From the NCBI RefSeq assembly GCF_000143415.4, contig NW_003314309.1:766936-830935 (forward strand): a DNA stretch of 64,000 nt, written 5' to 3'. This DNA is from Selaginella moellendorffii. Its lineage: Eukaryota > Plantae > Lycopodiophyta. The notes beneath the pieces are model-generated. The model was not told the DNA's origin. It worked only from the letters and a program-made list of their open reading frames with translations, and ran no database searches. The position numbers and the translations under genes are program-made. This document shows positions 12,351 through 64,000 of this stretch, piece by piece (the stretch's first letter is position 1; each line of letters starts with the position of its first letter).

Positions 12351-13035
12351 AATTTGTTGTAGTAATGCTTAGTTTGGATAATTATTCCTACTTATCAATC
12401 CAATTGATCAAATAAAGTTTATAATTATAAGCATGTTTGTAATTTATAGATGCAAGATTAATCTTATTGCATATCAACCCTTAGATGGTAGAATAAAATA
12501 GAATATATTAAAAAGTGTTTAATTTTTTGGTTTGCTTAAGCAAACCTATAGGGGGACTGGGATGGTATTGAATATACCTAGAATATATTTGGATATTCTA
12601 GGATATTCTACCATCTAACGGTTGTTATTCATTTAGATTAATTTTGTATTTATAATTTATAAACATGTTTATAATTTATAAACTTTCTTAAACCTTTTCT
12701 AGTATATTCTTTTTAATTCTACCATCTAATGGTTGATATGCAATAAAATTAATCTTGTATATATGAATTACAAACATGCTTATAATTATAAACTTTATTT
12801 GATCAATTGGATTAATAAGTAATAATAACACTAGTATTAAGCAAACCAAGCGTTGCTACATGCAACGCGTAGCAATTTATTGTTTATTTTATAAATTATA
12901 AACATGTTTATAAATTATAAATATAAAATTAATTTAAATGAATAAAAACCATTAAATGGTAAAATATCCTAAAATATTCAAGTATATTTTAGATATATTC
13001 ATTCATCTCAGTCCCCCCTTAAGCAAACCAAAAAT
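12351..13035 (-). mobile_element. Older antisense copy of the same element, split by the inner copy (12351-12520 + 12884-13035)
   Basis: 12401-12515 is the reverse complement of 12694-12819; 12525-12685 is the reverse complement of 12888-13035. Confidence 0.65.
12523..12880 (+). mobile_element. Non-autonomous DINE-1/Helentron-like element (inner copy)
   Basis: 13-bp subterminal IRs ttggtttgcttaa (12527-12539) / ttaagcaaaccaa (12837-12849); 5' palindrome ggtttgcttaagcaaacc; 3' GC stem-loop 12850-12875; T-rich flanks. Confidence 0.6.
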
Positions 13036-35049: not shown

Positions 35050-35620
35050 ACGATGGTAACCAAGGAGTGGAACTTTAACCCTTGGATATGTGGGTCAAGA
35101 GTAGCAGAGTGGAACCCAAGTTCAAGGCCTTTAGCGATTAAACAAAGAGATGGAGCTAAACTCCCAATTATGTAACTAAGGAGTATAAAAAACTAGAGCA
35201 TAGAACAACTCCCGAGTATATAGCCTAATGAGTGAAGGGACAAGAGCACGAAGTGACTCTCAAGCGTATAACCCAAAGAGTGAAAGGATAGAAGTACAGA
35301 GTGACTCCCAAGTGTACAATCCAAGGAGTGAAGGGGTAAGAGTACAAAAAAACATTAAAGTAGTCCTAAAGCTTCTAGCATCCTAGTACTAGGACCAATA
35401 TGTAAAATGGAACTAAATAAAGTTTTGTGTTATTTCATGGCCTAATGCGAGGATATGGATCCTCCAGCTAGTATGGTATGAAGCTTATGCTTAACTAGAA
35501 TACACTTTAAATTGGTTGATTATGCCTAACTTACTTACTATCCCTAATATACATTTAGAATCCCCTATAGCCAGCGCCCCCCCCCCTTCTAGAGGAACTC
35601 ATGCTTTAGGCTTTCACCAC
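35050..35620 (+). mobile_element. Degenerate LTR-like repeat with ~48-bp tandem units (35160-35345)
   Basis: Inverted match to 52180-52680; ends in C-run + atgctttagggctttcacc, like the young LTRs. Confidence 0.55.
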
Positions 35621-37451: not shown

Positions 37452-40400
37452 TATGAGTGCATGGAATATGGAAATGGAATACAAAAATGTGCATATTAAT
37501 TAGCCTAAAAACCTTAGCTTATATACAAAAGCAAATGGTCCAAATTGAAACCAATCCAATGGCTACCAAAATCCCACTATACTAATATTAATATACGGCA
37601 TCAAAGATATACACCTGAACCTCACATCATCCCCCCTTGGAACGATGGAAGATTATCAGAGTCCTCTTGTGGATAGGCCAGGATCTGAAGGAATATCAAG
37701 AGGAGGCATAAGTGGATCTGTAAGTGGCATTAGTTGTTTCTGATCCTTTTGTATGAAGTGTTTTAGTTGTTGCGCACAATTTTTAGAGGATTGGCCTAAT
37801 GAATATCATGCTAAACCTTATAAACTTATTGTCTAACTTACCACAACACCTAATATAGTCTTTTCCACTCAGCAAGGAACCTCTTAGATAAACCACATAC
37901 GATAAAATTGGGAAAATAAACTAAAACTAAATTATCCATTTTGTACTTTGCACGTGGACGATGATGGGAGTTGTAGCACTGTTATTGTCCCACTTATATG
38001 CAGCCTATATGTTTGGTAAACTCTGCTTAGACAAGTGAAAAAATGCTCATCAAATACTAATCTCACAACTTAGTTTTAGCACCTCATGACAATTGTGAAG
38101 GTAAACCCAATTCTGTTAGTAATGTTGGATCATGACCATATAGGAGTGTTTATGGTGAAACACCAATAAAACTTGCACCCTTATGACATATACATACTGT
38201 AGAGACAGTAAATAACCATCATAATTCGAATACTGAAAGTTCATATACTTTGCGATCATCTCTTTAAAGGTTTGAACAAGCTATTCCACCAAACTGTCTG
38301 ATTATAGATGATAAACATTTATGAAAGTGTGGCATATCCTTAATTGAGATGTTAGAATGTGAAATGCTTTAACCATAAATATGGGACTATTATCCAAGAG
38401 AACCCACTTTGGACAGGAATGTTGGAACACCACTCAATTGATGAGGAAGTATCCAAAAATAGTTGTAGACATGCTAGTAAGAGCACTGAATTCCACCCAA
38501 CAAGTAAAGTAATCAAAAGCAATATGACATACTCATTGTTAGTAGTCGATTATGGAAAATGCCCCATTAAATCAATTGCCACTAACTCAAATAGATGGGA
38601 AACTACAGTTAACTCCAACCATCCTTCTTTAGCACGACAGGGAGTATTACGAGCTTGGCACCAAATGCAACTATGCACATACTAGATAACATCACATCGC
38701 ATTTCTGGCTAATATTGTAGCGCATGTGATCATGGGATGAGATTTGGATATACTGTCACCGTGGATCCTTGGAACCTTGGGGGATAAATGGGGATAAAAT
38801 AGCCACTAAGGGCTCTCTCATCAAGCAATTGCCCCTTTTCCAGTTGGCTTAAGGGGAGAGAGATAAGGTGCGGTACAGTTGGTATCAGAGCAAATGGCAT
38901 GGGTTCGATTCCCATTGATTAGTGGCTACTTAAAGTATAATATACCCTTGAGCAAGGTATATTCCTACCCCTAAATTTGAAATTATATGTATTGGGCATC
39001 CATACGTACATCCTTCCTCTTGTGTGGAGTATCCACAGACGAAAGTATCCACTGTGAGACTGCGGTATGGTAAATTTGAAATTATATGTATTGGGCATCC
39101 ATACGTACATCCTTCCTCTTGTGTGGAGTATCCACAGACGAAAGTATTCACTGTGGGACTGCGGTATGGGTGGATGACTAGTTGCCTCACATGGAATAGC
39201 TAGTCTACACAATGGAAGGATTGGTAGATTAAGTGCGGAAATGGAAGTGCTGGTTCCCTTTGGCTCAGTAGGGGTTGTTAGTCAATAGTCAATGAGGACA
39301 TTGACATCTCTGAAGGGGGGGTGAGTGCTGTGGGACTGCGGTACGGGTGGATGACTAGTTGCCTCACATGGAAAATGGAAGTGCTGACATGGAAAATGGA
39401 GGTGCTAGTCTACACAATGGAAGGATTGGTAGATTAAGTGCGGAAATGGAAGTGCTGGTTCCCTTTGGCTCAGTAGGGGTTGTTAGTCAATAGTCAATGA
39501 GGACATTGACATCTCTGAAGGGGGGGTGAGTGCTGTGGGACTGCGGTACGGGTGGATGACTAGTTGCCTCACATGGAAAATGGAAGTGCTGACATGGAAA
39601 ATGGAGGTGCTGGTTCCCCTTGGCATTGACATCTCTGAAAGGGGGGTGAGTGCTGTGGGACTGCGGTACGGGTGGATGACTAGTTGCCTCACATGGAAAA
39701 TGGAGGTGCTGACATGGAAAATGGAGGTGCTGGTTCCCCTTGGCTCAGTAGGGGTTGTTAGTCAATAGTCAATGAGGACATTGACATCTCTAAAGGGGGG
39801 GCGAGTGGAACCTTGGGCCACTAAAATAGCCACTAAGGGAAATCCCCTTTTCCAGTTGGATTAAGGGGAGAGAGATAAGGTGCGCTACAAATATAAAGTT
39901 TTGCATAGCTTCTCGTCACACAACAATGTCATATGCCCGCCTAAAACATGAGTATGAAGAAAGCATGAAATAAAGATCGAAGACACCACCAACCATAAAT
40001 GATCATTAGGATCCGTCTTCACAAAATAAAGAAGATTGTTCTTAAGATGAATATTGAGAATGTAAATGCTGAAATGGCAAGTCATTAGCAAGTGATGTAA
40101 GATTCTCATACCTATTGCAAAGACTTCAAATCCACAACTCAATCTTTTGAGTTTTATGAACCTCATCAAGAGAAGGTAAATCTTGTTTTGCACTTTGTGA
40201 ACACTAAACATCAAGTATAACAACTGCTAATGGCACAAAATCTTTGTCTAAAAAATCCATAAATACTAAAATAATAGGTTTGTAAGAAATATGAAAAGAG
40301 AGGGAAGAAGGAAGAGGAGCTCAAAAAAGGGCATCAGCATTAGCTATAAAACTCCCTGGGTGATGAACAATATCAAAATCATATAATGGAAGTTTCAAAG

Positions 40401-52179: not shown

Positions 52180-52700
52180 GTGAAAGCATAAAGCATGTGT
52201 TGCTAGAGGGGGGGATGTATAGTAAGGATAGTGGGTAGGTCAAGTGGAGCATAATTTAGCTCCAATTTATATGCCTATCCTTGTTTTGCGTCCATCTTAG
52301 GTTTAACCTTAAATTCCATATCATATTAACTAATGAAGTACTATTAGACCACCAATATGCTAAAATAATGCCAAACTCTATTTGGTTTTATTTTGCATGC
52401 TAATCCTAACATTAAGATCCTACATGCTCTAAGATTGTTTTTATATTATTCTATGCTCCTATCTTTTTGCTTTTTGGGTTGTACATTTGGGAGTTATTCT
52501 ATGCTTTTGTCCCTTCACTTTTTGGGTTATACATTTGGGAATTGTCCTATGCTTGTGGTTTCTTACACTCCTTGGCTATATGCTCAGAAGTTAAGCTTTA
52601 TACTTTCATTCAATGGCTCAAGACCTTGAAACTTGAGTTCCACTCTATTGCCCTTATCAACCGGGTTTTACTTATTTATTCTCTATAAAACCATAAAGTG
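52180..52700 (-). mobile_element. Degenerate LTR-like repeat, second copy of the 35.0-35.6 kb family
   Basis: Reverse-complement match including the 48-bp units (52450-52560) and the ggtgaaagc..G-run end. Confidence 0.55.
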
Positions 52701-52879
52701 TAGTTTTGACATGCTCGTTGTTATCTATGTGGTCAAAGTCCTTGATAGGGAATTTGAGGGACTCAAGGAGGTACACAATCTGTCACTCATATATAAGGAA
52801 CCAACTCGCCGAGGTGTCGTAGGCTAAAGGAACCCTGAAAGCATGACCAAAATGACAAAGAGTTCATCGGATGGGACCA

Positions 52880-53140
52880 AGTCAAAGATCGAGTCCAAGA
52901 CCGACTCTGAGACCGAGTTCGAGATAGAGTCCGGAATCGAGTCCGAGGCCGACTCGGGGACCGAGTTCGAGACCGAGTTCGAGACGGAGTCCGAGATCCC
53001 AAATCGGGTCCGAGACCGAGTCCGAGGTCGAGTCCGAGGTCAGGTCTGAGATCGGGTCCGAGATCGAGTCCGAGATCGAGTCCGAGACCGAATCCGAAGT
53101 CGGATCCGAAATCGAGTCCGAGATCGAGCTAGAGACTAAG
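52880..53140 (+). repeat. CpG-rich hexamer array (ccgagt/tcgaga/ccgaga) in the LTR, followed by G18 at 53193-53210
   Basis: Present in all four LTR copies with variable copy number. Confidence 0.9.
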
Positions 53141-53319
53141 TCCAAATACTAATATGGGTCAAGGGGTGAAAGCCCAAAGCGTGCGTCTCCCAGGGGGGGG
53201 GGGGGGGGGGTTCCAAAAGTATAGTAGGGATAGTGAGGTCCAGGAACCAGTTTTGAAAGGACTCTCCAGTGGGGCTTCCAAACCGACTTGAGGTTGAGAC
53301 TGGGACTGAGGGGCCTTGG

Positions 53320-53373
53320 TGTAAGCTCCTGGGCTGGGTGACCTCCCGGGAAGTCCAAACTCAGGAGCTTACA
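53320..53373 (+). mobile_element. 54-bp TG..CA insertion carrying a 5S rRNA fragment (Cassandra-like mini solo LTR)
   Basis: TSD CTTGG (53315-19 / 53374-78); 12-bp TIR tgtaagctcctg/caggagcttaca; tgggtgacctcccgggaagtcc matches plant 5S rRNA; absent from sister LTRs at ~54.76 and ~58.0 kb. Confidence 0.8.
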
Positions 53374-54635
53374 CTTGGGTGGGAGTGAGCATAGACTTGG
53401 TTGGTGCCGGAGGGGCCATCCAAGGAAGTTCTCAAGAGCAGCTCCCACTCCCGAAAGGGAAACCGATTGTAGTGCTCCTGGCTCATGTGGAGTGGTGCCC
53501 CACTTGAGTACCATGCGGCTCATTGGTCCTCGCCCTCCCTAGGGGCTTGGGCCTTCCTTCGGGATGGAAGTGGGGGAGTAAAGGTACCCATACCGGGCTG
53601 CTAGGCCACGGTGTTTCGCCCTGGCATCCCGAAGCAAGCGTTGCACTCAAGACTTGGGATTTAGAGGGTCCAATGATCAAGTCTTGTGGTACCAAAGGAT
53701 GTTAGGAACCTGGAAGCTTGGTGTGCTTGGCTGCTTGTGTTTACGGGGAGTGTAGCCGAACCTTAAGTCCAGTTTAACCCGGGGAGGGGGATTGGGAGTG
53801 ATTTGGGAATTCGTGGATGGATGGCTAACACTTTGTTGCTTGTGTAGTGAGTAGCTGAAACCAAGTAGGAGCTGGTACCATAGGCGAGAACCTTAGCAAG
53901 GGAACTTAGCAAAAGCCAAGACAGTGTTGGATAAATAGACGAGGTAAGCTGGCAAATTGGAAAGGAAAAATTTGTGGCTTACAATTTGGTATCGGAGCCT
54001 TTTCCTCAGTTCTAGCGAAGGATAGAGGCGGATTGCTGGGAGATGGCAAAGGCGGGGCGTAAACGAACCAAGGCGAAGACGGAACCTCCGCTAGAGCTGG
54101 AGCCTCTGGTCGAACAAGAGGCTATGGATGAGGAATCCTTTCATGAGGATCATATAAGCCACAAATTTTTCCTTTCCAATTTGCTAGCTTACCTCGTCTA
54201 TCCGTCTAACACCGCCTTGGCCTTTGCTAAGTTCCCTTGCCAAGGTTCTCGCCTATGGTACCAGCTCCTACTTGGTCTCAACTACTCACTGCACGAGCAA
54301 CGGAGTGTTAGCCATCCATCCACGGATTCCCAAATCACTCCCAATCCCCCTCCCCAGGCTAGACTGGACTTAAGGTTCGGCTACACTCCCCACAAGCACA
54401 AGCAACCAAGCGCACCATGCTTCCAGGTTCCTAACATCCCTTGGTACCACAAGACTTGATCATGGGACCCTCTAAATCCCAAGTCTTGAGTGCAACACTT
54501 GCTTCGGGACGCCGGGGCGAAACACCGTAGCCTAGCGGCCCGGTATGGGTACCTCTACCCCCGCACTTCCATCCCGAAGGAAGGCCCAAGCCCCTAGGAA
54601 GGGCGAGGACCAATGAGCCGCATGGTACTCAAGTG

Positions 54636-54735
54636 NNNNNNNNNNNNNNNNNNNNNNNNNNNNNNNNNNNNNNNNNNNNNNNNNNNNNNNNNNNNNNNNN
54701 NNNNNNNNNNNNNNNNNNNNNNNNNNNNNNNNNNN
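54636..54735. other. Assembly gap (100 N)
   Basis: Run of n. Confidence 1.
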
Positions 54736-55977
54736 CCCCAGTCAAGTCCATGCTCACTCCCACCCAAGGCCCCTTGGTCCCAGTCTCAACCTCCAGTCAA
54801 TTTGGAAGCACCACTATAGAGTTCCTTCAAGACTACTTCCTAAACCTCGCTATCCCTACTATGCTTTTGGAACCCCCTGCAGCCCCCCCCCCCCCCCCCT
54901 GGGAGACGCACGCTTTGGGCTTTCACCCCTTGACCCATATTAGTACCTTGGACTAAACCTTGGACTTGGTCTTGGACCCGATTTCGGATCTCGGACTCCG
55001 TCTCGAACTCGGTCTCGAACTCGGTCCTCGAGTCGGTCTCGGACTCGATTCCGGACTCTATCTCGAACTCAGTCCTAGAGTCGGTCTTGGACTCGATCTT
55101 CGACTTGATCCCATCCGATGAACTCTTTGTCATTTTGGTCATGCTTTCGGGGTTCCTTTAGCCTACGACACCTCAGCGAGTTGGTTCCTTACAACTCCAC
55201 CACCCATAGAAGAAGTTCGATGCCCACATCGAACGTCTCTTTTTATCCTACGACTTGTTGACCATGTCTCCGGGGGCATCTCCCCACTTAGTAGTGTGCC
55301 TAAGTTAGCCTCCCTGGCCAAGAGCCCATGATAACGGAATATAGGTGTCCCTATACTCTTCACCTCACCACGCCCTAGTATAGGGTCGAGACTTGAACTC
55401 AGCCTTGCTTTACTAGGGGGTCGGGACTCAAACCCAACCTCCGTAGAATACATCTACAGATTCGACATCCCCGCAGGGAGTCGGGCGTAGCTCCCTACGC
55501 CTAGTCGACCTAGCTAACCCATGCTAATTAGCTTACCTTCGGCGCGCCTTCGGGTCCCAACATATGCCATTGCTCAACTTCTGAAATTGATACTTTTAAT
55601 TGAACTTTGCATAAGTACATAGAGTTCTGCCATGCAGAAATTCCTCCACTAGATCTCGCGCGTTCGCTAGGTTCTCCTCCGGTTCCCATGTTGCTTCGCA
55701 GTGTGGAAATCCTTTCCACTTCACATGGAACTCTCTCACCTCGCGTCCTTGTCGCTTGCTCTTGCGCGCATTGAGGATGGCCTCGACTTCGTATTCCTCC
55801 TCCCCTTGGATAACCTCAGGTAAAGGTCTTACTTGGTCCTTGCGAAGCGGATCCTCAAAATACGGCTTGAGTAAGTTCACGTGGAACACGGGATGCATCT
55901 TCCTCATCTCTCGAGGAAGTCGGAGACGGTAAGCCACTTTACCGATTCGAGCCTCAATCTCGTAAGGCCCGGCGAAC

Positions 55978-56029
55978 CTGCTTAAGGAACTCAAGATCAA
56001 TTCATTTACAAGAATACATGCATTTTTAC
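55978..56029 (-). other. Candidate 52-nt spliceosomal intron in the integrase GPY/F module (homologue starts at 62768 in element 1)
   Basis: AG|gtaaaa...ttccttaagcag|G; removal restores KLTQRFAGPYEIEARIGKVAYRLRLP. Confidence 0.8.
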
Positions 56030-58541
56030 CTTTGGGTCAACTTCCGGCTGATCCCACTTGGTAGATGTCGCAAACGACTCTCTACCAAAGTTGCTCGTGT
56101 AATGAGTAACTTTGAGTTAGGGACTAGATCACATACCTCAATTTGGACTTCACTCGACTTGATGGCTATATTGGCTCTGGCCTTTTTCGGGTAGGGACAT
56201 TCCCTCGAAAAGTGTCCCGTTTCACCGTAGTTGTAGCATACGTTGTTTCCCACGCTGCTATATGACTTGACCTTCTTATCCATGGGTTTGTCTCTTTTCG
56301 CTTGACTGCCCCACGTACTCGCTCGTTGGCCACCAGATTTGCCTTTCTGGAACCCCGAGGACTCATTTTTAGAGAAACTCTTCTTGAATTTCCCCCTGCT
56401 ATACATTCCTCTTGGTTTGGCCCCTTTGCTAAATGTGGATCCCGACCCCGTCGTGTTCCCCTTTCGCAGGTTATCGTTGAAATGCACCTTGATGGCCGCA
56501 TCCAACGCTTCCTTGTAGTTGGTCGGGTTCTAGCGCATCACCTCACCGCGAGCCCAGGTTTGCAAACCTGATATAAAGGCATGGAACGCATCCATATCCC
56601 CCATGTCCGTGACAAGTATCCTCTTTGCCATGAACCCATTCACATATTCCTGGATGGTTCCAGTCTGCTTCAGCCTACTCAGCTCATCTCTCAGATGCAA
56701 AGTGGCATTCGGAGGAACGTATGTTGCGTAGATCCTTGCCTTCATCATGTCTCAGGTGGCCACCGGTCCTTCGTTGGCCTCCGTTGTTCTCCACCAAGAC
56801 TTGGCATTATCTGCCAAGTATGGTTTTGCACATGGGACATTCTCCGAGCTCGGTAACCGCAACGCTCGGAAGTAATCCTCCATATCGTAAAACCAATCCT
56901 CCACAACCTTATAGTCGTTCACTCCCTTGAACACCGGTGGGGGCTTTGGTTTGTACTTGGGAACTGCCTGAGGGACTGATTCCACTTCGGTCTGTTCGAC
57001 CTTGTCTGGTTTTGCCTCAGTCCCTGCCGAAGGGTCTGCACCTTCTGCGCTGCCAGCATCTGCAGTCTTTCGCTTTTTCTTTCGCTTCTCATCACGCTTT
57101 AGCTTGTGTACGAGAGTCTCCAGCAGGGCATTGGTCGGTGCCAACTGTCCTTCTAGCACATCCAATCGAGCCTTGGATGACCGAACCTCACCACCGGACT
57201 CCTGTTTGGAAGTTTCCTCACTGGAGTCCTCCTCATGCAAAGATTCCTCATCCATAGCCTCTTGTTCGACCGGAAGCTCCAACTCTGGTGGAGGTTCCGT
57301 CTTTGCCTGGGTTCGCCCTACCCTTGCCATCTCCCAGCAATCCGCCTCTATCCTTCGCTAGAACTGAGGAAAAGGCTCTGATACCAAATTGTAAGCCACA
57401 AATTTTTCCTTTCCAATTTGCCAGCTTACCTCGTCTATCCGTCCAACACCGCCTTGGCCTTTGCTAAGTTCCCTTGCCAAGGTTCTTGCTTATGGTACCA
57501 GCTCCTACTTGGTCTCAGCTACTCACTGCACGAGCAACGGAGTGTTAGCCATCCATCCACGGATTCCCAAATCACTCCCAATCCCCCTCCCCGGGTTAGA
57601 CTGGACTTAAGGTTCGGCTACACTCCCCGCAAGCATAAGCAGCCAAGCACACCAAGCTTCCAGGTTCCTAACATCCCTTGGTACCACAAGACTTGATCAT
57701 GGGACCCTCTAAATCCCAAGTCTTGAGTGCAACACTTGCTTCGGGATGCCGGGGCGAAACACCGTGGCCTAGCGGCCCGGTATGGGTACCTCTACCCCCC
57801 CACTTCCATCCCGAAGGAAGGCCCAAGCCCCTAGGGAGGGCGAGGATCAATGAGCCGCATGGTACTCAAGTGGGGCACCACTCCACATGAGCCGGGAGCA
57901 CCGCAATCGGTTTACCTTTCGGGAGTGGGAGCTGCTCTTGAGCACTTCCTTGGATGGCCCCTCCGGCACCAGTCAAGTCCATGCTCACTCCCACCCAAGG
58001 CCCCTTGGTCCCAGTCTCAACCTCAAGTCGGTTTGGAAGCCCAACTGGAGAGTCCCTTCAAAACTGGTTCCTGGACCTCACTATCCCTACTATACTTTTG
58101 GAACCCCCTGCAGCCCCCCCCCCCCCTCTGGGAGACGCACGCTTTGGGCTTTCACCCCTTGACCCGTATTAGTATTTGGACTTAGTCTCTGGCTCGATCT
58201 CGGACCCGATTTCGGATCCGACTTCGGATTCGGTCTCGGACTCGATCTCGGACTCGATCTCGGACCCGATCTCGGACCCGACCTCGAACTCGACCTCGGA
58301 CTCGGTCTCGGACCCGGTTTCGGATCTCGGACTCCGTCTCGAACTTGGTCTCGAACTCGGACTCGAACTCGGTCCCCGAGTCGGTCTCGGACTCGATTCC
58401 GGACTCTATCTCGAACTCGGTCCTAGAGTCGGTCTTGGATTCGATTTTCGACTTGGTCCCATCCAATGAACTCTTTGTCATTTTGGTCATGCTTTCGGGG
58501 TTCGTTTAGCCTACGACACCTTGGTGAGTTGGTTCCTTACA

Positions 58542-61500
58542 GATGACTCCAGTGAGGAAACTTCCAAATAGGAGTTTGGTGGCGAGGTTCGGTCGTCCAA
58601 GCCTCGATTGGATGTTCTAGAAGGACAGTTGGCACAGACCAATGCCCTGCTAGAGACTCTCGTATGCAAACTAAAGCGTGACGAGAAGCGGAAGAAAAAG
58701 CGAAAGACTGCGGATGCTGGCAGCGTAGAAGGTGCGGACCCTTTGGTAGGGACTTAGGCAGAACCAAACAAGGTCAAACAGACCGAAGTAGAATCAGTCC
58801 CTCAGGCAGTTCCCAAGTACAAACAAAAGCCCCCACCAGTCTTCAAGGGAGTGAATGACTATAAGGTGGTGGAGGATTGGTTTTACGATATGGAGGACTA
58901 CTTCCGAGCGTTGCGATTACCGAGCTTGGAGAAGGTCCCATGTGCAAAACCATACTTGGCAGATAATGCCATGTCTTGGTGGAGGACAACGGAGGCCAAC
59001 GAAGGACCGGTGGCGACTTGGGACATGATGAAGGCGAGGATCCGTGCAACATACGTTCCTCCGAATGCCACTCTGCATCTAAGAGATGAGCTGAGTAGGC
59101 TGAAGCAGACTGGAACCATCCAGGAGTATGTGAATGGGTTCATGGCAAAGAGGATACTTGTCACGGACATGGGGGATATGGATGTGTTCCATGCCTTCAT
59201 ATCAGGTTTGCAAACCTGGGCTCGCGGTGAAGTGATGCGCTGGAACCCGACCAACTATAAGGAAGCATTGGATGCAGGTATCAAGGTGCATTTCAACGAT
59301 AACCTGCGAAAAGGGAACGCGACGGGGTCGGGGTCCACGTTTCATAAAGGGGCCAAACCGAGGGGAACATATAGCAAGGGGAAATTCAAGAAGAGTTTCT
59401 CTAAGAATGAGTCCTCGGGGTTCCGGAAAGGCAAATCCGGTGGCCAGCGAGCAAGTACGTAGGGGAGTCAAGCAAAAAGAGACAAACCCACGGATAAAAA
59501 GGTCAAGTCGTTTAGCAGCGTGGGAAACAATGTATGCTACAACTGCGGTGAAGCGGGACACTTTTTGAAGGAATGTCCCTACCCGAAGAAAGCCAGAGCC
59601 AATATCGCCATTAAATCGAGTGAAGTCCAAAATGAGGTATGTGATCTAGTCCCTAGCTCAAAGCTACTTATTACACGAGCAACTTTGGTAGAGAGTCGTT
59701 TGCGACATCTACTAGCCCTCCGAGGGAAGCTCGGAGGTAGCTTTGTTAAGATCCTTATTGACATTGGTGCTTCGGATAATTTTGTGGCTGCAGACATAGT
59801 CCGGCAAGCCAGACTAACAGTGTAGCGGCTGGGCAAACCAAGGACTATAGAGTTTGTTCAAGGTAGCCAAAGCACCGATGAGGTACTTCGACAAGCAAGA
59901 GTCGAAGTAGGGACTTGGAAAGTAGACATGGATTTCACCGTGTTGGACATGGCGGGATTTGACGTGATCTTCGGGATGGATTGGTTCAATCGGTTCGTGG
60001 TAGCCCTGCATGGACAAGGTAGGAACCTTGTGGTACTAGCGAATGCCCAAGGAAGAAGATCCAGGGTGGAGGCCCAGGATCTAAAGGTAGGGCAATGCAA
60101 GGCCAAAGATTCGTGCCTAAACCTGGTGTCCACGAGAGGACAACTCACTAAAGGGACAAAGGCTGCATTTTTGTGCTTACTCTCGGTGAGAAGTGATAAA
60201 AAGACAGGAACGGAAGAAGTACCTTTAGTGATCCAGCAGGTGTTGGACCAATTCCAGGATACCATGCCAGAGGAGCTACCGGCGGGGTTGCCCCCCGCAC
60301 GACCGATAGAACATAAGATTGAGCTGGTCAAGGGTGCTGAGGCAATGGTTCGTCCACCCTATCGTTTGAACGAAAAAGAACTCGTGAAGCTCAAGCGCCA
60401 ACTAGAGGAGTTGGTGGACAAAGGGTATGTTAGGTTGAGCAAATCGCCGTATGAGGCGCCGGTCCTATTTGTGAAAAAGAAAGATGGATCTATGCGCATG
60501 TGCATAGACTACCGGTTGCTCAACAAATATACAAAGAAGAACAAGTACCCTTTGCCAAGGATTGAGGACCTGTTTGATAGGTTGGGAAAAGCAAAATACT
60601 TCTCAAGGATTGACCTAAGGTCAGGATACTACCAGATTAGGGTAGCAGAGGAAGATGTCGAGAAGACAACTTGTCGAACGAGGTATGGGAGCTTCGAGTT
60701 TTTGGTGATGCCCTTCGGGCTATGCAATGCGCCGGCAACGTTTTCGGCGTTAATGAACCATATCTTTGTACCCTATCTGGATCACTTTGTGGTCGTTTAT
60801 ATTGACGACATCCTAATCTATAGCGAAACGCTAGAAGAGCATGCCAAACATTTGACGAAGGTGTTTGAGAAACTAAGGGAACACCAGCTATATGCTAAAG
60901 AGAGCAAATGTAACTTTGCTCAGCAAGAGGTAAAGTTTCTCGGGCATGTGGTGGGCAAGGATGGGCTCAAGGTGGACCCTGAGAAGGTCCAAGCGATCCA
61001 GGATTGGGAGCGACCATCGAATGTACACGAGTTAAGGGCATTCTTGGGGCTATGCAACTACTACCGAAAGTTTATTAGACACTATTCGAGAGTAGCCCTG
61101 CCCTTAACAGACCAAACGGGAAAAGGGAAGATGGTATGGACAGCGGAATGCGAGGCGGCATTTGTCCACCTCAAAGGGAAATTGAGGAAAGCTCCGGTGT
61201 TGGCATTACCAGATTTTGGTAAGGACTTTGAGGTAGAAATGGATGCTTTGGACTTTGCGTTGGGCGCAGTTTTGAAGCAGGATAACCATCCAGTAGCATT
61301 CTTCTCGAAAAAGTTGGACAAGGCTCAACGGAAGTGGCCTGCCCATGAGAAGGAATTGTTTGTGGTGGTCAAGGCGCTCAAGGAGTGGAGACACTACCTT
61401 GGGAGACACTTCAAGGTTTATACGGACAATGTGGCAACAAAACACTTTTTGTCACAACCTGACCTAAGGGGGAAACAGGGTCGGTGGGCCAATGCTTTGG

Positions 61501-63128
61501 CCGAGTTTGATTGTGAAATTCTGTACAAGCCTGGGAAGAGCAACATCGTGGCGGATGCGCTAAGTCGAAAAGCAAGCTTGAAGTTGGCGATATCCAGCGC
61601 AACAGCAATATTTTGGGATGATGTGTGGACAACATATGAGAACGATGGTCTAGCACAAGAAGTGTTGCTGCAGAATCTGGAGGCACGGGAAGCTCACCAA
61701 AGGGGTGAGCTACCAACAGAAGAGAAAACGGGCTATGTGGAACGCAATGGACTCATCTATTACAAGCAAACGAGGGTGTATGTCCCAGAAGGGGAACTAA
61801 GGAAGGTAGCCTTAGAGGAGTGTCATGATGGACCTCTTGCGAAACACGGCGGAGTGCCCAAGACGATGGGCTTACTCAAGAGGAAGTATCACTGGCCAAA
61901 TATGGCTAAGGACGTCCAAGACTATGTAAAGACATGTCCAACATATGGTCAAAGATGTGACTAAGGCTACTGGGGGCTTGTTGCAAAATCCCAATTCCAG
62001 ATCGTCCGTGGAAATGTCTTACGATGGACTTCATCACGGGACTACCCCCAAGCGAGGGGTTCGATGCGATATTTGTGGTGGTGGATCGATTTTCGAAGAT
62101 GGCACATTTCATACCCACCACAACGGAAGTGGATGCGGAAGGTGTGGCGAAGCTGTTCTTTGAGCAAGTGGTTCAACTGCGGGGAAGGCCAGAAGAGATT
62201 ATCTTAGATCGAGATAAAATCTTCACCAGTAGGTTCTGGAGAACCCTCCTGGAACAGTATCGCACCAAGTTGAAATTTAGCATAGCCTATCACCCACAGA
62301 CAGGTATGGGGTATTAAGTCAAGTTGATGGCACTAACACTTCTTGACAGACGGACAAACGGAAAGGGTGAATAGGCAGCTAGAGGATTATTTGTGATGCT
62401 ATGTCTCAGGAGACCAGACCGATTGGGTAAGTCATTTGGGACTTGTGGAAATGTGTTATAACAACTCACCACATTCAAGCATCGGGGTGAGTCCATGGGA
62501 AGTCATCAATGAGCGAGCTATTGAAGGTCCTATGGAACTCGGCGTGGCCGAGTATCATGGAGAGTTACCCGCAGTGGAGGCATTCACAGCGGAAAGACTC
62601 AACATTTGGAATCTAGTGAGGGATTCCTTGGAACGGGCTCAACAAAGGCAAACCAAGTACGCGAACCAGAAGCGTCAGGACGTAGAGTTCCAAGCTGGGG
62701 AGAAGGTGTGGCTAAACACCAAGAACCTCAGGCTACCAAGTGGGATCAGCCAGAAGTTGACCCAAAGGTAAAAATGCATGTATTCTTGTAAATGAATCGG
62801 TCTTGGGTTCGCGGGGCCTTATGAGATTGAGGCTCGAATCGGTAAAGTGGCTTACCGTCTCCGACTTCCTCGAGAGATGGGGAAGATGCACCCCGTGTTC
62901 CACGTGAACTTACTCAAGCCGTATTTTGAGGATCTGCTTCGCAAGGACCAAGTAAGGCCTTTACTTGAGGTTATCCAAGGGGAAGAGGAATACGAAGTCG
63001 AGGCCATCCTTAATGCACGCAAGAGCAAGCGACAAGGACGCGAGGTGAGAGAGTTCCATGTGAAGTGGAAAGGATTTCCACACTGCGAAGCAACATGGGA
63101 ACCGGAGGTGAACCTAGCGAACGCGTGA
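58542..63128 (+). pseudogene. Disrupted gag-pol of element 1
   Basis: Stops at 58755, 59460, 59823, 62394 and 63126; frameshifts near 61945 and 61990; RT-RNase H open 59928-61964. Confidence 0.9.
62304..62349 (+). other. Candidate 46-nt spliceosomal intron in the integrase core
   Basis: AG|gtatgg...ctaac...ttcttgacag|AC; removal restores YHPQTDGQTERVNRQLEDYL in frame. Confidence 0.8.
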
Positions 63129-64000
63129 GATCTAGTGGAGGAATTTCTGCAAGGCAGAACTCTATGTACTTATGCAAAGTTCAATTAAAAGTATCAATTG
63201 GTGAAGTTGAGCAAATATGTTAGGACCCAAAGGCACGCCAAGCGTAGGGAGCTACGCCCGACTCCCTGCGGGGATGTCGAATCCGTAGACGTATTCTATG
63301 GAGGTTGGGTTCAAGTCCCAACCCCCTAGTAAAGCAAGGTTGGGTTCAAGTCCCAACCCCATACTAGGGCGTGGTGAGGTGAGGAGTATAGGGACACTTA
63401 TATTCCGTTGTCATGGGCTCTTGGCCGGGGAGGCTAACTTAGGCACACCGCTAAGTGGGGGGATGCCCCCGGAGACATGGTCAACAAGTCGTAGGATCAA
63501 AAGAGAGACGTTTGATGTGGGCATCGAACTTCTTCTATGGGTGGTGGAGTTGTAAGGAACCAACTCGCCGAGGTGTCGTAGGCTAAAGGAACCCCGAAAG
63601 CATGACCAAAATGACAAAGAGTTCATCGGATGGGACCAAGTTGAAGATCGAGTCCAAGACCGACTCTGAGACCGAGTTCGAGATAGAGTCCGGATTCGAG
63701 TCTGAGGCCGACTCGAGGACCGAGTTCGAGACCGAGTTCGAGACGGAGTTTGAGACCGAGTTCGAGACAGAGTCTGAGATCCGAAATCGGATCCGAGACC
63801 GAGTCCGAGGTCGAGTCTGAGGTCGGGTTCGAGATCGGGTCCGAGATCGAGTCCGAGATCGAGTCCGAGACCGAATCCGAAGTCGGATCTGAAATCGAGT
63901 CCGAGATCGAGCTAGAGACTAAGTCCACATACTAATACGGGTCAAGGGGTGAAAGCCCAAAGCGTGCGTCTCCCAGTGGTGGGGGGGGGGGGGGGGGGGC

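Follow-up and report, generated by a model that had tools for sequence, protein, structure and literature searches.

Two nested LTR retrotransposons of a single Ty3/gypsy chromovirus family, located in the window (the whole stretch of 64,000 nucleotides of Selaginella moellendorffii DNA submitted to the analysis), probably carry four spliceosomal introns, I1 to I4. Their spliced RNA, devoid of the primer binding site (PBS), would serve for translation only, and their unspliced RNA would be the only template copied into DNA. A probability of about two in three is assigned to this reading. In a broader and more tentative form, to which slightly less than even odds are given, the element would represent an LTR retrotransposon organized as a true split gene, in which a PBS-excising intron decides, all or none, whether an RNA is mRNA or genome and also acts as a ratchet retaining new introns in catalytic domains.

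Retroelements are expected to shed their introns, and retrotransposition reporter assays rest on that expectation. The relevant part of a 2025 review presents plant LTR elements as generally devoid of introns, with Ogre and EVADE as named exceptions (PMC12786077). The family described here, which comprises hundreds of copies, seems unable to make an integrase without splicing, yet it retains its introns. How one transcript is shared out between being translated and being copied receives here a compact and testable answer. The family further provides a natural example of recently gained introns, to be compared with relatives devoid of them, and transposition might be gated through host splicing. 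A warning is also given for families with "no intact copy" in short-intron genomes, which may be intact but spliced.

A preliminary description of the window had proposed four GT-AG segments of 46-72 nt, at U5/PBS, at the end of gag and twice in the integrase. All four are present in the sequence at these places. I3 measures 46 nt and I4 52 nt; the leader intron I1 measures 66 instead of 72 nt and the gag-end intron I2 measures 157 nt in the contig. The same description is borne out as to the coding capacity of the unspliced RNA, which cannot encode a complete integrase because I3 and I4 both contain in-frame stops. The region comprises two elements and not three, a pol-deleted copy being located inside the gag of a full-length, decayed copy.

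Organization of the elements and of their introns

The outer element, on the + strand, extends from 52792 to beyond the end of the window (64000), and the inner element, inserted in its gag on the minus strand, is flanked by a 5-bp target duplication matching at four of five positions (54148-54152 and 58542-58546). The LTRs of the outer element diverge by 3.9% over 435 columns and those of the inner element by about 5.8%. With its LTRs and PBS, the outer element displays the domain order gag-PR-RT-RH-INT, followed by SH3 and chromodomain, as identified with Pfam. The chromodomain at the C-terminus of the integrase (PF00385, E 2.7e-16) becomes continuous with the integrase only once I3 and I4 are removed in translation. 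The pol deletion of the inner copy was considered as a possible splice product and rejected, its joint being located at a 4-nt microhomology devoid of GT-AG. The features of both elements are collected in Table 1.

Table 1. Features of the outer and inner elements along the window.
Feature	Position	Strand	Remarks
5' LTR, outer element	52792..53983	+	1,192 nt; 12-nt repeat array and poly-G tract
Intron I1 (leader), outer element	53944..54009	+	66 nt: terminal 40 nt of U5, then spacer and PBS, with pyrimidine tract
tRNA-Met primer binding site, within I1	53987..53999	+	13 nt; from sequence
gag start, outer element	54043..54147	+	In frame with 58542 onward; interrupted by inner element
Inner element	54153..58541	-	pol deleted from gag end to integrase end; inserted in gag
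Last integrase exon, inner copy	55596..55977	-	SH3 PF24626 and chromodomain PF00385; 309-bp ATG ORF
Intron I4, intact 52-nt copy (inner)	55978..56029	-	Skipped in X1 and X2 contigs, CT..AC on + strand; 4-nt junction repeat
gag, inner copy, to I2 donor	56137..57330	-	ORFs; X1 contig departs at 56137, X2/X3 contigs stop there
Intron I1, inner copy	57364..57429	-	PBS 57386-57374; 66-nt CT..AC skip in X1/X2, retained in X3
5' LTR, inner copy	57390..58541	-	1,152 nt; TATA-like site 58094-58091
Remaining gag with zinc knuckle, outer element	58542..59636	+	Pfam PF03732, PF00098; stops from decay
Intron I2, 157-nt form	59637..59793	+	Protease catalytic motif inside; X1 loose end matches from 59794
pol to I3 (protease end, RT, RNase H, integrase zinc finger and core)	59826..62303	+	Pfam; decay frameshift near 61945-61990
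Intron I3	62304..62349	+	46 nt (47 in most X4 depth); in-frame stop 62315-62317; 5-nt junction repeat
Integrase exon between I3 and I4	62350..62767	+	Outer element
Intron I4, outer copy	62768..62806	+	13 nt short, acceptor lost
Last integrase exon, outer copy	62807..63128	+	SH3, chromodomain (Pfam); early stop from decay
3' LTR start, outer element	63551..64000	+	Cut by window end; purine-rich tract immediately before

I1, 66 nt long, starts 40 nt before the LTR end, continues through a 3-nt spacer and the 13-nt tRNA-Met PBS, and includes a pyrimidine tract; its outer and inner copies differ at a single position. The donor of I2 coincides with the end of gag (59637 in the outer copy, 56136 in the inner copy). 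I3, in which a CTAAC branch-like site is present, splits the conserved integrase motif HPQT/DGQTE, and I4 is located just before the SH3 motif. Upon translation, the removal of each of these two introns restores the conserved reading that its retention interrupts by a stop. Both integrase sites were subjected to 3,000 trial deletions each, scored against a profile of 35 homologous integrases. At I3, the top score of 222 bits (99 when unspliced) is common to six 46-nt cuts of equivalent register, the GT..AG cut among them; only 22 of the 3,000 deletions around this site are GT..AG, and the fit of the GT..AG cut is more than chance. At I4, the GT..AG cut scores 59.6 (-3.5 when unspliced) and ranks fourth of 3,000, tied for the second score, the best cut being a non-canonical one of 52 nt (61.0). 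The GC content of I1, I3 and I4 amounts to 31-41%, against 46-54% in their flanks; that of the 157-nt I2 is not below its flanks. According to the part of PMC6157073 devoted to intron lengths, those of S. moellendorffii fall in a cluster with 82% of fungi, unlike those of other land plants.

Additional copies were available in X4, a DNA-like run with a different organism code, whose contigs drop rare variants. Position +5 of the I3 donor is a T in all six X4 contigs at 62308, which makes a weaker donor than that of the window, and an X4 contig across the outer I4 carries the 13 letters that the window copy lacks there, including an intact acceptor. The I1 donor and the LTR end can pair in a small hairpin, by which the mRNA/genome switch may be held; this hairpin gives a z of -2.6 (4 of 200 shuffles) for a 41-nt segment picked post hoc, and of -0.2 to -1.0 for segments of 81 and 161 nt.

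By its host, sizes, ORFs, LTRs and PBS, the element matches the published description of SM1-Galahad and would belong to that family. As to the host, three of five window proteins that were looked up are present in the protein collection, each in a cluster with named S. moellendorffii proteins. As described in the relevant sections of Novikov et al. (2012, PMC3350952), SM1-Galahad occurs in S. moellendorffii in hundreds of copies, none of them intact; it measures about 7.5 kb, with poly-G LTRs of more than 1 kb (1,076/1,146 bp, as compared with 1,192 and 1,152 nt here) and a 13-bp tRNA-Met PBS. Its consensus comprises an ORF of 3,885 bp (1,295 aa) and, after it, two shorter ones of 316 and 309 bp, the latter a separate chromodomain ORF, whereas the sister SM2-Galahad consists of a single unbroken ORF of 4,731 bp. 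In the present element, the reading that begins at the gag ATG and runs to the I3 stop comprises 3,885 bp, or 1,295 codons, counting 7 letters carried by most of the X4 depth, and the ORFs that start with an ATG downstream of I3 and of I4 measure 318 and 309 bp, respectively. The agreement of both the end of the 3,885-bp ORF and the 309-bp ORF implies that the SM1-Galahad consensus carries I3 and I4 and that the breaks are family-wide. The published consensus breaks where these two introns lie. In the published account, the pieces are short extra ORFs and not exons, and the second ORF differs by its length (316 bp versus 318 bp here). Neither "intron" nor "splic" occurs in the main text of PMC3350952, and "intron" is equally absent from the text of its supplement. 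In a quick tree devoid of any named Galadriel/Galahad member, the element groups with 16 relatives (SH-aLRT 93), and the Galadriel/Galahad clade label is taken from PMC3350952 and not from the tree. No member of this family was found in the protein databases, where the best matches of separate searches show 48%, 51% (for retroelements) and at most 46% identity.

Splicing in contigs and reads, and introns in genomic copies

Transcripts were sought in the contigs of X1 and X2, two samples from one study, and of X3, from another study, the RNA nature of the three being presumed. One contig in each of X1 and X2 exactly skips the 66-nt I1 of the inner copy, and one contig in each exactly skips its 52-nt I4, with canonical ends in all cases. 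In X1, a contig departs precisely at the I2 donor; the part of it that hangs loose there aligns to the outer copy from 59794 onward, which gives an intron of 157 nt. The removal of this form, encountered in X1 only, eliminates the catalytic motif of the protease and shifts the frame, Gag stopping two codons later. The X2 and X3 contigs stop precisely at the I2 donor, which is what a branch would produce. I1 and I2 are both retained in X3, whose contigs read into I4 from either side. Leader and integrase splicing accordingly co-vary across the three contig runs, being spliced in X1 and X2 and retained in X3. Even if X1 and X2 were DNA, splicing would be implied anyway, since they would then contain a PBS-less processed copy.

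The preliminary description had suggested looking for junctions in RNA data, for the co-occurrence of leader and integrase splicing, and for intron-less genomic copies. Junctions were found in contigs for I1, I4 and the I2 donor; both kinds of splicing go together in three contig runs, two spliced and one retained, although no single contig joins I1 splicing to I3/I4; and the genomic search is reported below for X4.

Among the joints found in contigs, none occurs at I3, an intron absent from the inner copy. If I3 is spliced, two long X1 contigs lie 1 letter apart, as in a SNP bubble, against 48 letters if it is retained, an arithmetic which assumes that the contigs follow the outer copy without further indels; I3 is likely removed from the transcript. 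The acceptor that would give a 72-nt leader intron is not used in the contigs, the observed one giving 66 nt, nor are the two nearer I2 acceptors, one at 59691, which would give 55 nt, and the other at 59693, which would give 57 nt in frame; pieces as short as those left by the 72-nt leader and the 55/57-nt gag forms may go unplaced in contigs. A Pol-coding isoform is also absent from the contigs, the only X1 contig over I2 being the Gag-only form. As judged from length arithmetic, the X1 contigs run on through pol past the I2 joint, contigs being unable to show RNA ends.

The raw RNA runs X9-X11, each sampled for about 12%, yielded 12, 2 and 0 reads on 5 kb of the outer copy, too few for joints. 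Three raw RNA reads are located inside I4, on the strand opposite to that of the gag reads. The splicing of I3 would account for one read pair of X9, with 123 letters in the bin and a depth of 0 at both 62308 and 62323; little weight is given to it, the same bin total being equally obtained with an unspliced read starting at the first base of I3.

In X4, 1,248 contigs lie on the outer copy and cover I3 and I4. No intron-less joint at I2-I4 occurs among them, the only joint found in X4 being an unrelated CG..CC skip with a depth of 2.5. The X4 depth within I3/I4 ranges from 119 to 132, as compared with 321-361 at nearby exon sites and 89-140 at other exon sites.

Selection, origin and proposed mechanism

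Between the outer and inner copies, gag exhibits 88 differences, 51 synonymous and 37 others (pN/pS 0.20-0.28), and the exon after I4 exhibits 13, of which 7 are synonymous and 6 others (pN/pS 0.24-0.33; binomial p 0.044). At the level of the sequence, the latter values are taken to show purifying selection on the exon behind both stops, keeping in mind that they derive from 13 differences only and that the exon has its own ATG available. In the same exon, 6 of the 7 differences between the RNA contigs and the inner copy are synonymous, these forming a best-supported and not independent subset.

The comparison with 83 related loci of about 50% identity informs on the origin of the introns. The alignment extends across the I3 site in 65 of them and likewise across the I4 site in 65, and at either site 64 lack an insert of at least 5 aa. 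This absence of inserts in the relatives, together with the unbroken ORF of SM2-Galahad, designates I3 and I4 as gains of this lineage. Their junctions display direct repeats of 5 nt (I3) and 4 nt (I4), of the kind expected from an insertion that duplicates its target. With respect to I2, the distance from the zinc knuckle to the protease is 57 aa in 12 of the 13 relatives possessing both motifs (79 in the other one) and 75 aa here; if 57 nt were cut in frame from the I2 donor onward, it would fall to 56 aa, a spacing that supports a putative short insert at I2. The 57-nt segment, when retained, reads open in both copies. Of 39 PBS-like sites in relatives, one possesses both donor- and acceptor-like motifs and three a donor-like motif only, and the PBS-spanning intron was rejected as a trait common to the relatives. 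The short top protein matches P0002-P0006 were likewise rejected as intron breaks, the related loci consisting of a continuous integrase or of scattered frameshifts.

An RNA without a PBS cannot prime minus-strand DNA. The removal of I1, a deletion observed in the contigs, takes away the U5 end and the whole PBS, and no minus-strand priming would therefore occur from I1-spliced RNA. The unspliced RNA would be translated into a polyprotein ending inside the integrase core, and the removal of I3 and I4 would restore the conserved reading. Splicing from the I2 donor to the acceptor 157 nt further, found in one run, deletes the protease motif and ends Gag at about 400 aa, as in Copia/EVD. Since the fully spliced X1 RNA codes for Gag only, Pol needs a third isoform, and the full Gag-Pol of about 1,555 aa would come from an RNA lacking I3 and I4 in which I2 is either retained or excised in frame (57 nt). 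Splicing would be coupled along the transcript, I1 and the integrase introns being presumably spliced on one molecule, so that RNAs deprived of I3/I4 would be deprived of the PBS as well and have no descendants in DNA; all the introns would thus pass to new copies. Only unspliced RNA would be packaged, and transposition would be regulated by splicing. Either the removal of I3/I4 must almost always accompany PBS loss or the particles must exclude spliced RNA, because template switching would otherwise purge the introns. As to their origin, I1 and I2 would have been recruited from working sequence (U5/PBS and protease), and I3 and I4 would be insertions, posterior to the split from the intron-less relatives, tolerated through the coupling of splicing with PBS loss.

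That the introns are real and essential to the integrase, but that the genomic RNA is set apart by other means (second promoter, cap or export as in BARE), with PBS loss as a by-product or a second safeguard, is considered rather unlikely. The parts of PMC3735527 dealing with BARE1 describe an intron kept in this way, only unspliced TATA1 transcripts being replicated, and the all-retained X3 as opposed to the spliced X1 and X2 would fit two classes of transcripts. The precise removal of the PBS by I1 argues against it. The 5' ends of the contigs on the inner 5' LTR (58067 in X1, 58064 in X3 and 58007 in X2) also nearly coincide between X1 and X3, an argument limited by the fact that contigs cannot show starts and that the I1 joint is carried by an X1 contig other than that ending at 58067.

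Two independent inserts with canonical ends, whose removal exactly restores the frame and a conserved motif, the splicing of I4 at exactly those ends, and the purifying selection on the exon behind both stops (13 differences, own ATG available) make it improbable that the family lacks an integrase of its own. I3 and I4 would then have been fixed in a master copy spread by the integrase of SM2-Galahad or of another family, splicing being incidental or a host-imposed inactivation. Such a view would agree with the lack of any intact SM1-Galahad copy in the published family description (PMC3350952), with the defects of both window copies, with the absence from the databases of any protein of the family, and with the spliced X1 RNA devoid of PBS and protease, which has the expected look of inactivation. 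Very little credit is given to a loss of the introns in some copying rounds, with rare intron-less autonomous copies having been missed: contigs drop rare variants, and the I3/I4 depth is below that of nearby exon sites, but a joint of depth 2.5 was detected elsewhere in X4 and none at I2-I4. Moreover, the ORF of a copy devoid of introns would be intact, and Novikov et al. (PMC3350952) found no such copy in the assembly.

Comparison with known systems

The reading preferred here, of four introns with a PBS-less mRNA and an unspliced genome, finds no precedent in the accessible parts of PMC2864245, PMC7197481, PMC7730604, PMC5750206, PMC12477816, bioRxiv 2020.02.20.956714 and bioRxiv 2022.06.16.496473. 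In full-text searches of the literature, a scope that leaves aside subscription journals, Repbase reports and bioRxiv supplements, no intron inside the integrase of an LTR retrotransposon and no PBS-removing intron in a plant element were found. In foamy viruses, the major splice donor is located in R, upstream of the PBS. Their packaged genome is distinct from the spliced mRNA that yields Pol, and in this respect these viruses resemble the present element; however, their introns, in the relevant part of PMC7828637, are large, alternative, and coding or cis-acting, and differ from small inserts breaking a catalytic domain. Penelope-like elements also retain introns, and a 5'-UTR intron of Chlamys-3 spans the boundary between the terminal repeat and the body (Craig et al. 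2021, PMC8557442). As presented in the same source, they are not LTR elements, use no tRNA priming and possess no DDE integrase, and the significance of the retention is called unknown.

Among plant elements, the I2-157 form most resembles the splicing of EVD/Copia (Oberlin et al. 2017, PMC5580714), which spans the protease, shifts the frame and introduces a stop just past the junction to give a Gag-only RNA. The protease intron, the frameshift and the stop near the junction of Copia-type Gag-only RNAs are all found in X1, a single run. In contrast, EVD/Copia has one intron, its unspliced RNA codes for the whole Pol and its spliced RNA terminates early, and the authors of PMC5580714 detected no conserved splicing among Arabidopsis Ty3/Gypsy elements. 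Membership of Ty1/copia was rejected, the integrase being located after RT-RH, and the element works like Copia at this step only. BARE1 of barley (Chang et al. 2013, PMC3735527), with its separate RNA pools for translation and reverse transcription, its short Gag-only intron and its absence of DNA copies derived from spliced RNA, is comparable, but it is a Copia element whose pools, in the source's account, depend on two TATA boxes, the R region and capping instead of PBS splicing, and whose integrase has no intron. In sunflower, the relevant section of PMC7730604 describes spliced elements with two introns, whose short isoforms code for a truncated Gag.

Ogre and CRR, plant Ty3/gypsy elements with a spliced transcript, come close by their type, and Ogre needs splicing to translate RT-RH-INT (PMC6317226, PMC3735527). 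The Ogre intron, however, is located between ORFs and the splicing of CRR removes rt, and neither a PBS-removing nor an intra-integrase intron is described in the corresponding parts of these sources. The family is a known one with a new architecture, which combines obligatory integrase introns with a PBS-removing intron.

LTR and leader of the inner element

Most of the reads of the raw RNA run X9, together with the end of one contig of X1 (a contig set taken to be RNA), match a single piece of the 5' LTR of the inner, pol-deleted element (57565-57921). Since these sequences continue into unrelated sequence on both sides, the LTR fragment they represent lies at another locus and belongs to a different transcript. 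The LTR also contains, 5' of the 66-nt leader intron, a pyrimidine-rich acceptor-like site preceded by a branch-like CTAAC, at 53830-53849 (+) in the outer element and at about 57527-57545 (-) in the inner one; the contigs of X1 and X2, the companion set from the same study, read through this site and show no splicing there. The putative leader of 736 nt (58066-57331, -) comprises nine upstream ATGs, none of them located within the intron.

3' ends of the RNA-like contigs

The ends of the RNA-like contigs, at 55483-55649, fall 290-460 nt short of the 3' LTR, and two of them lie within the chromodomain exon. Low depth or early polyadenylation could account for these ends.

Surroundings and related elements

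Positions 1-30000 of the window correspond to a gene-dense host region, with ORFs whose motifs suggest similarity to a TIR1/AFB receptor, an O-methyltransferase and the end of a lipoxygenase, and others similar to database proteins named PPR, F-box and KOBITO1-like. ARAGORN detected no tRNA in the window. The AT-rich repeats have the appearance of MITEs or of DNA transposons in decay.

Other repeats of the window
Feature	Position	Strand	Characteristics
TRIM-like element	38770-39889	+	bounded by short terminal repeats; PBS for tRNA-Met at 38880; interior non-coding, carrying repeats of 99, 205 and 120 nt
AT-rich inverted and direct repeats	12382-13001; 35258-35435 / 52363-52540		

Many of the related retroelement loci L004-L083 belong to a single abundant, decayed and intron-less family with a tRNA-Met PBS, which stands among the closest relatives in the tree.
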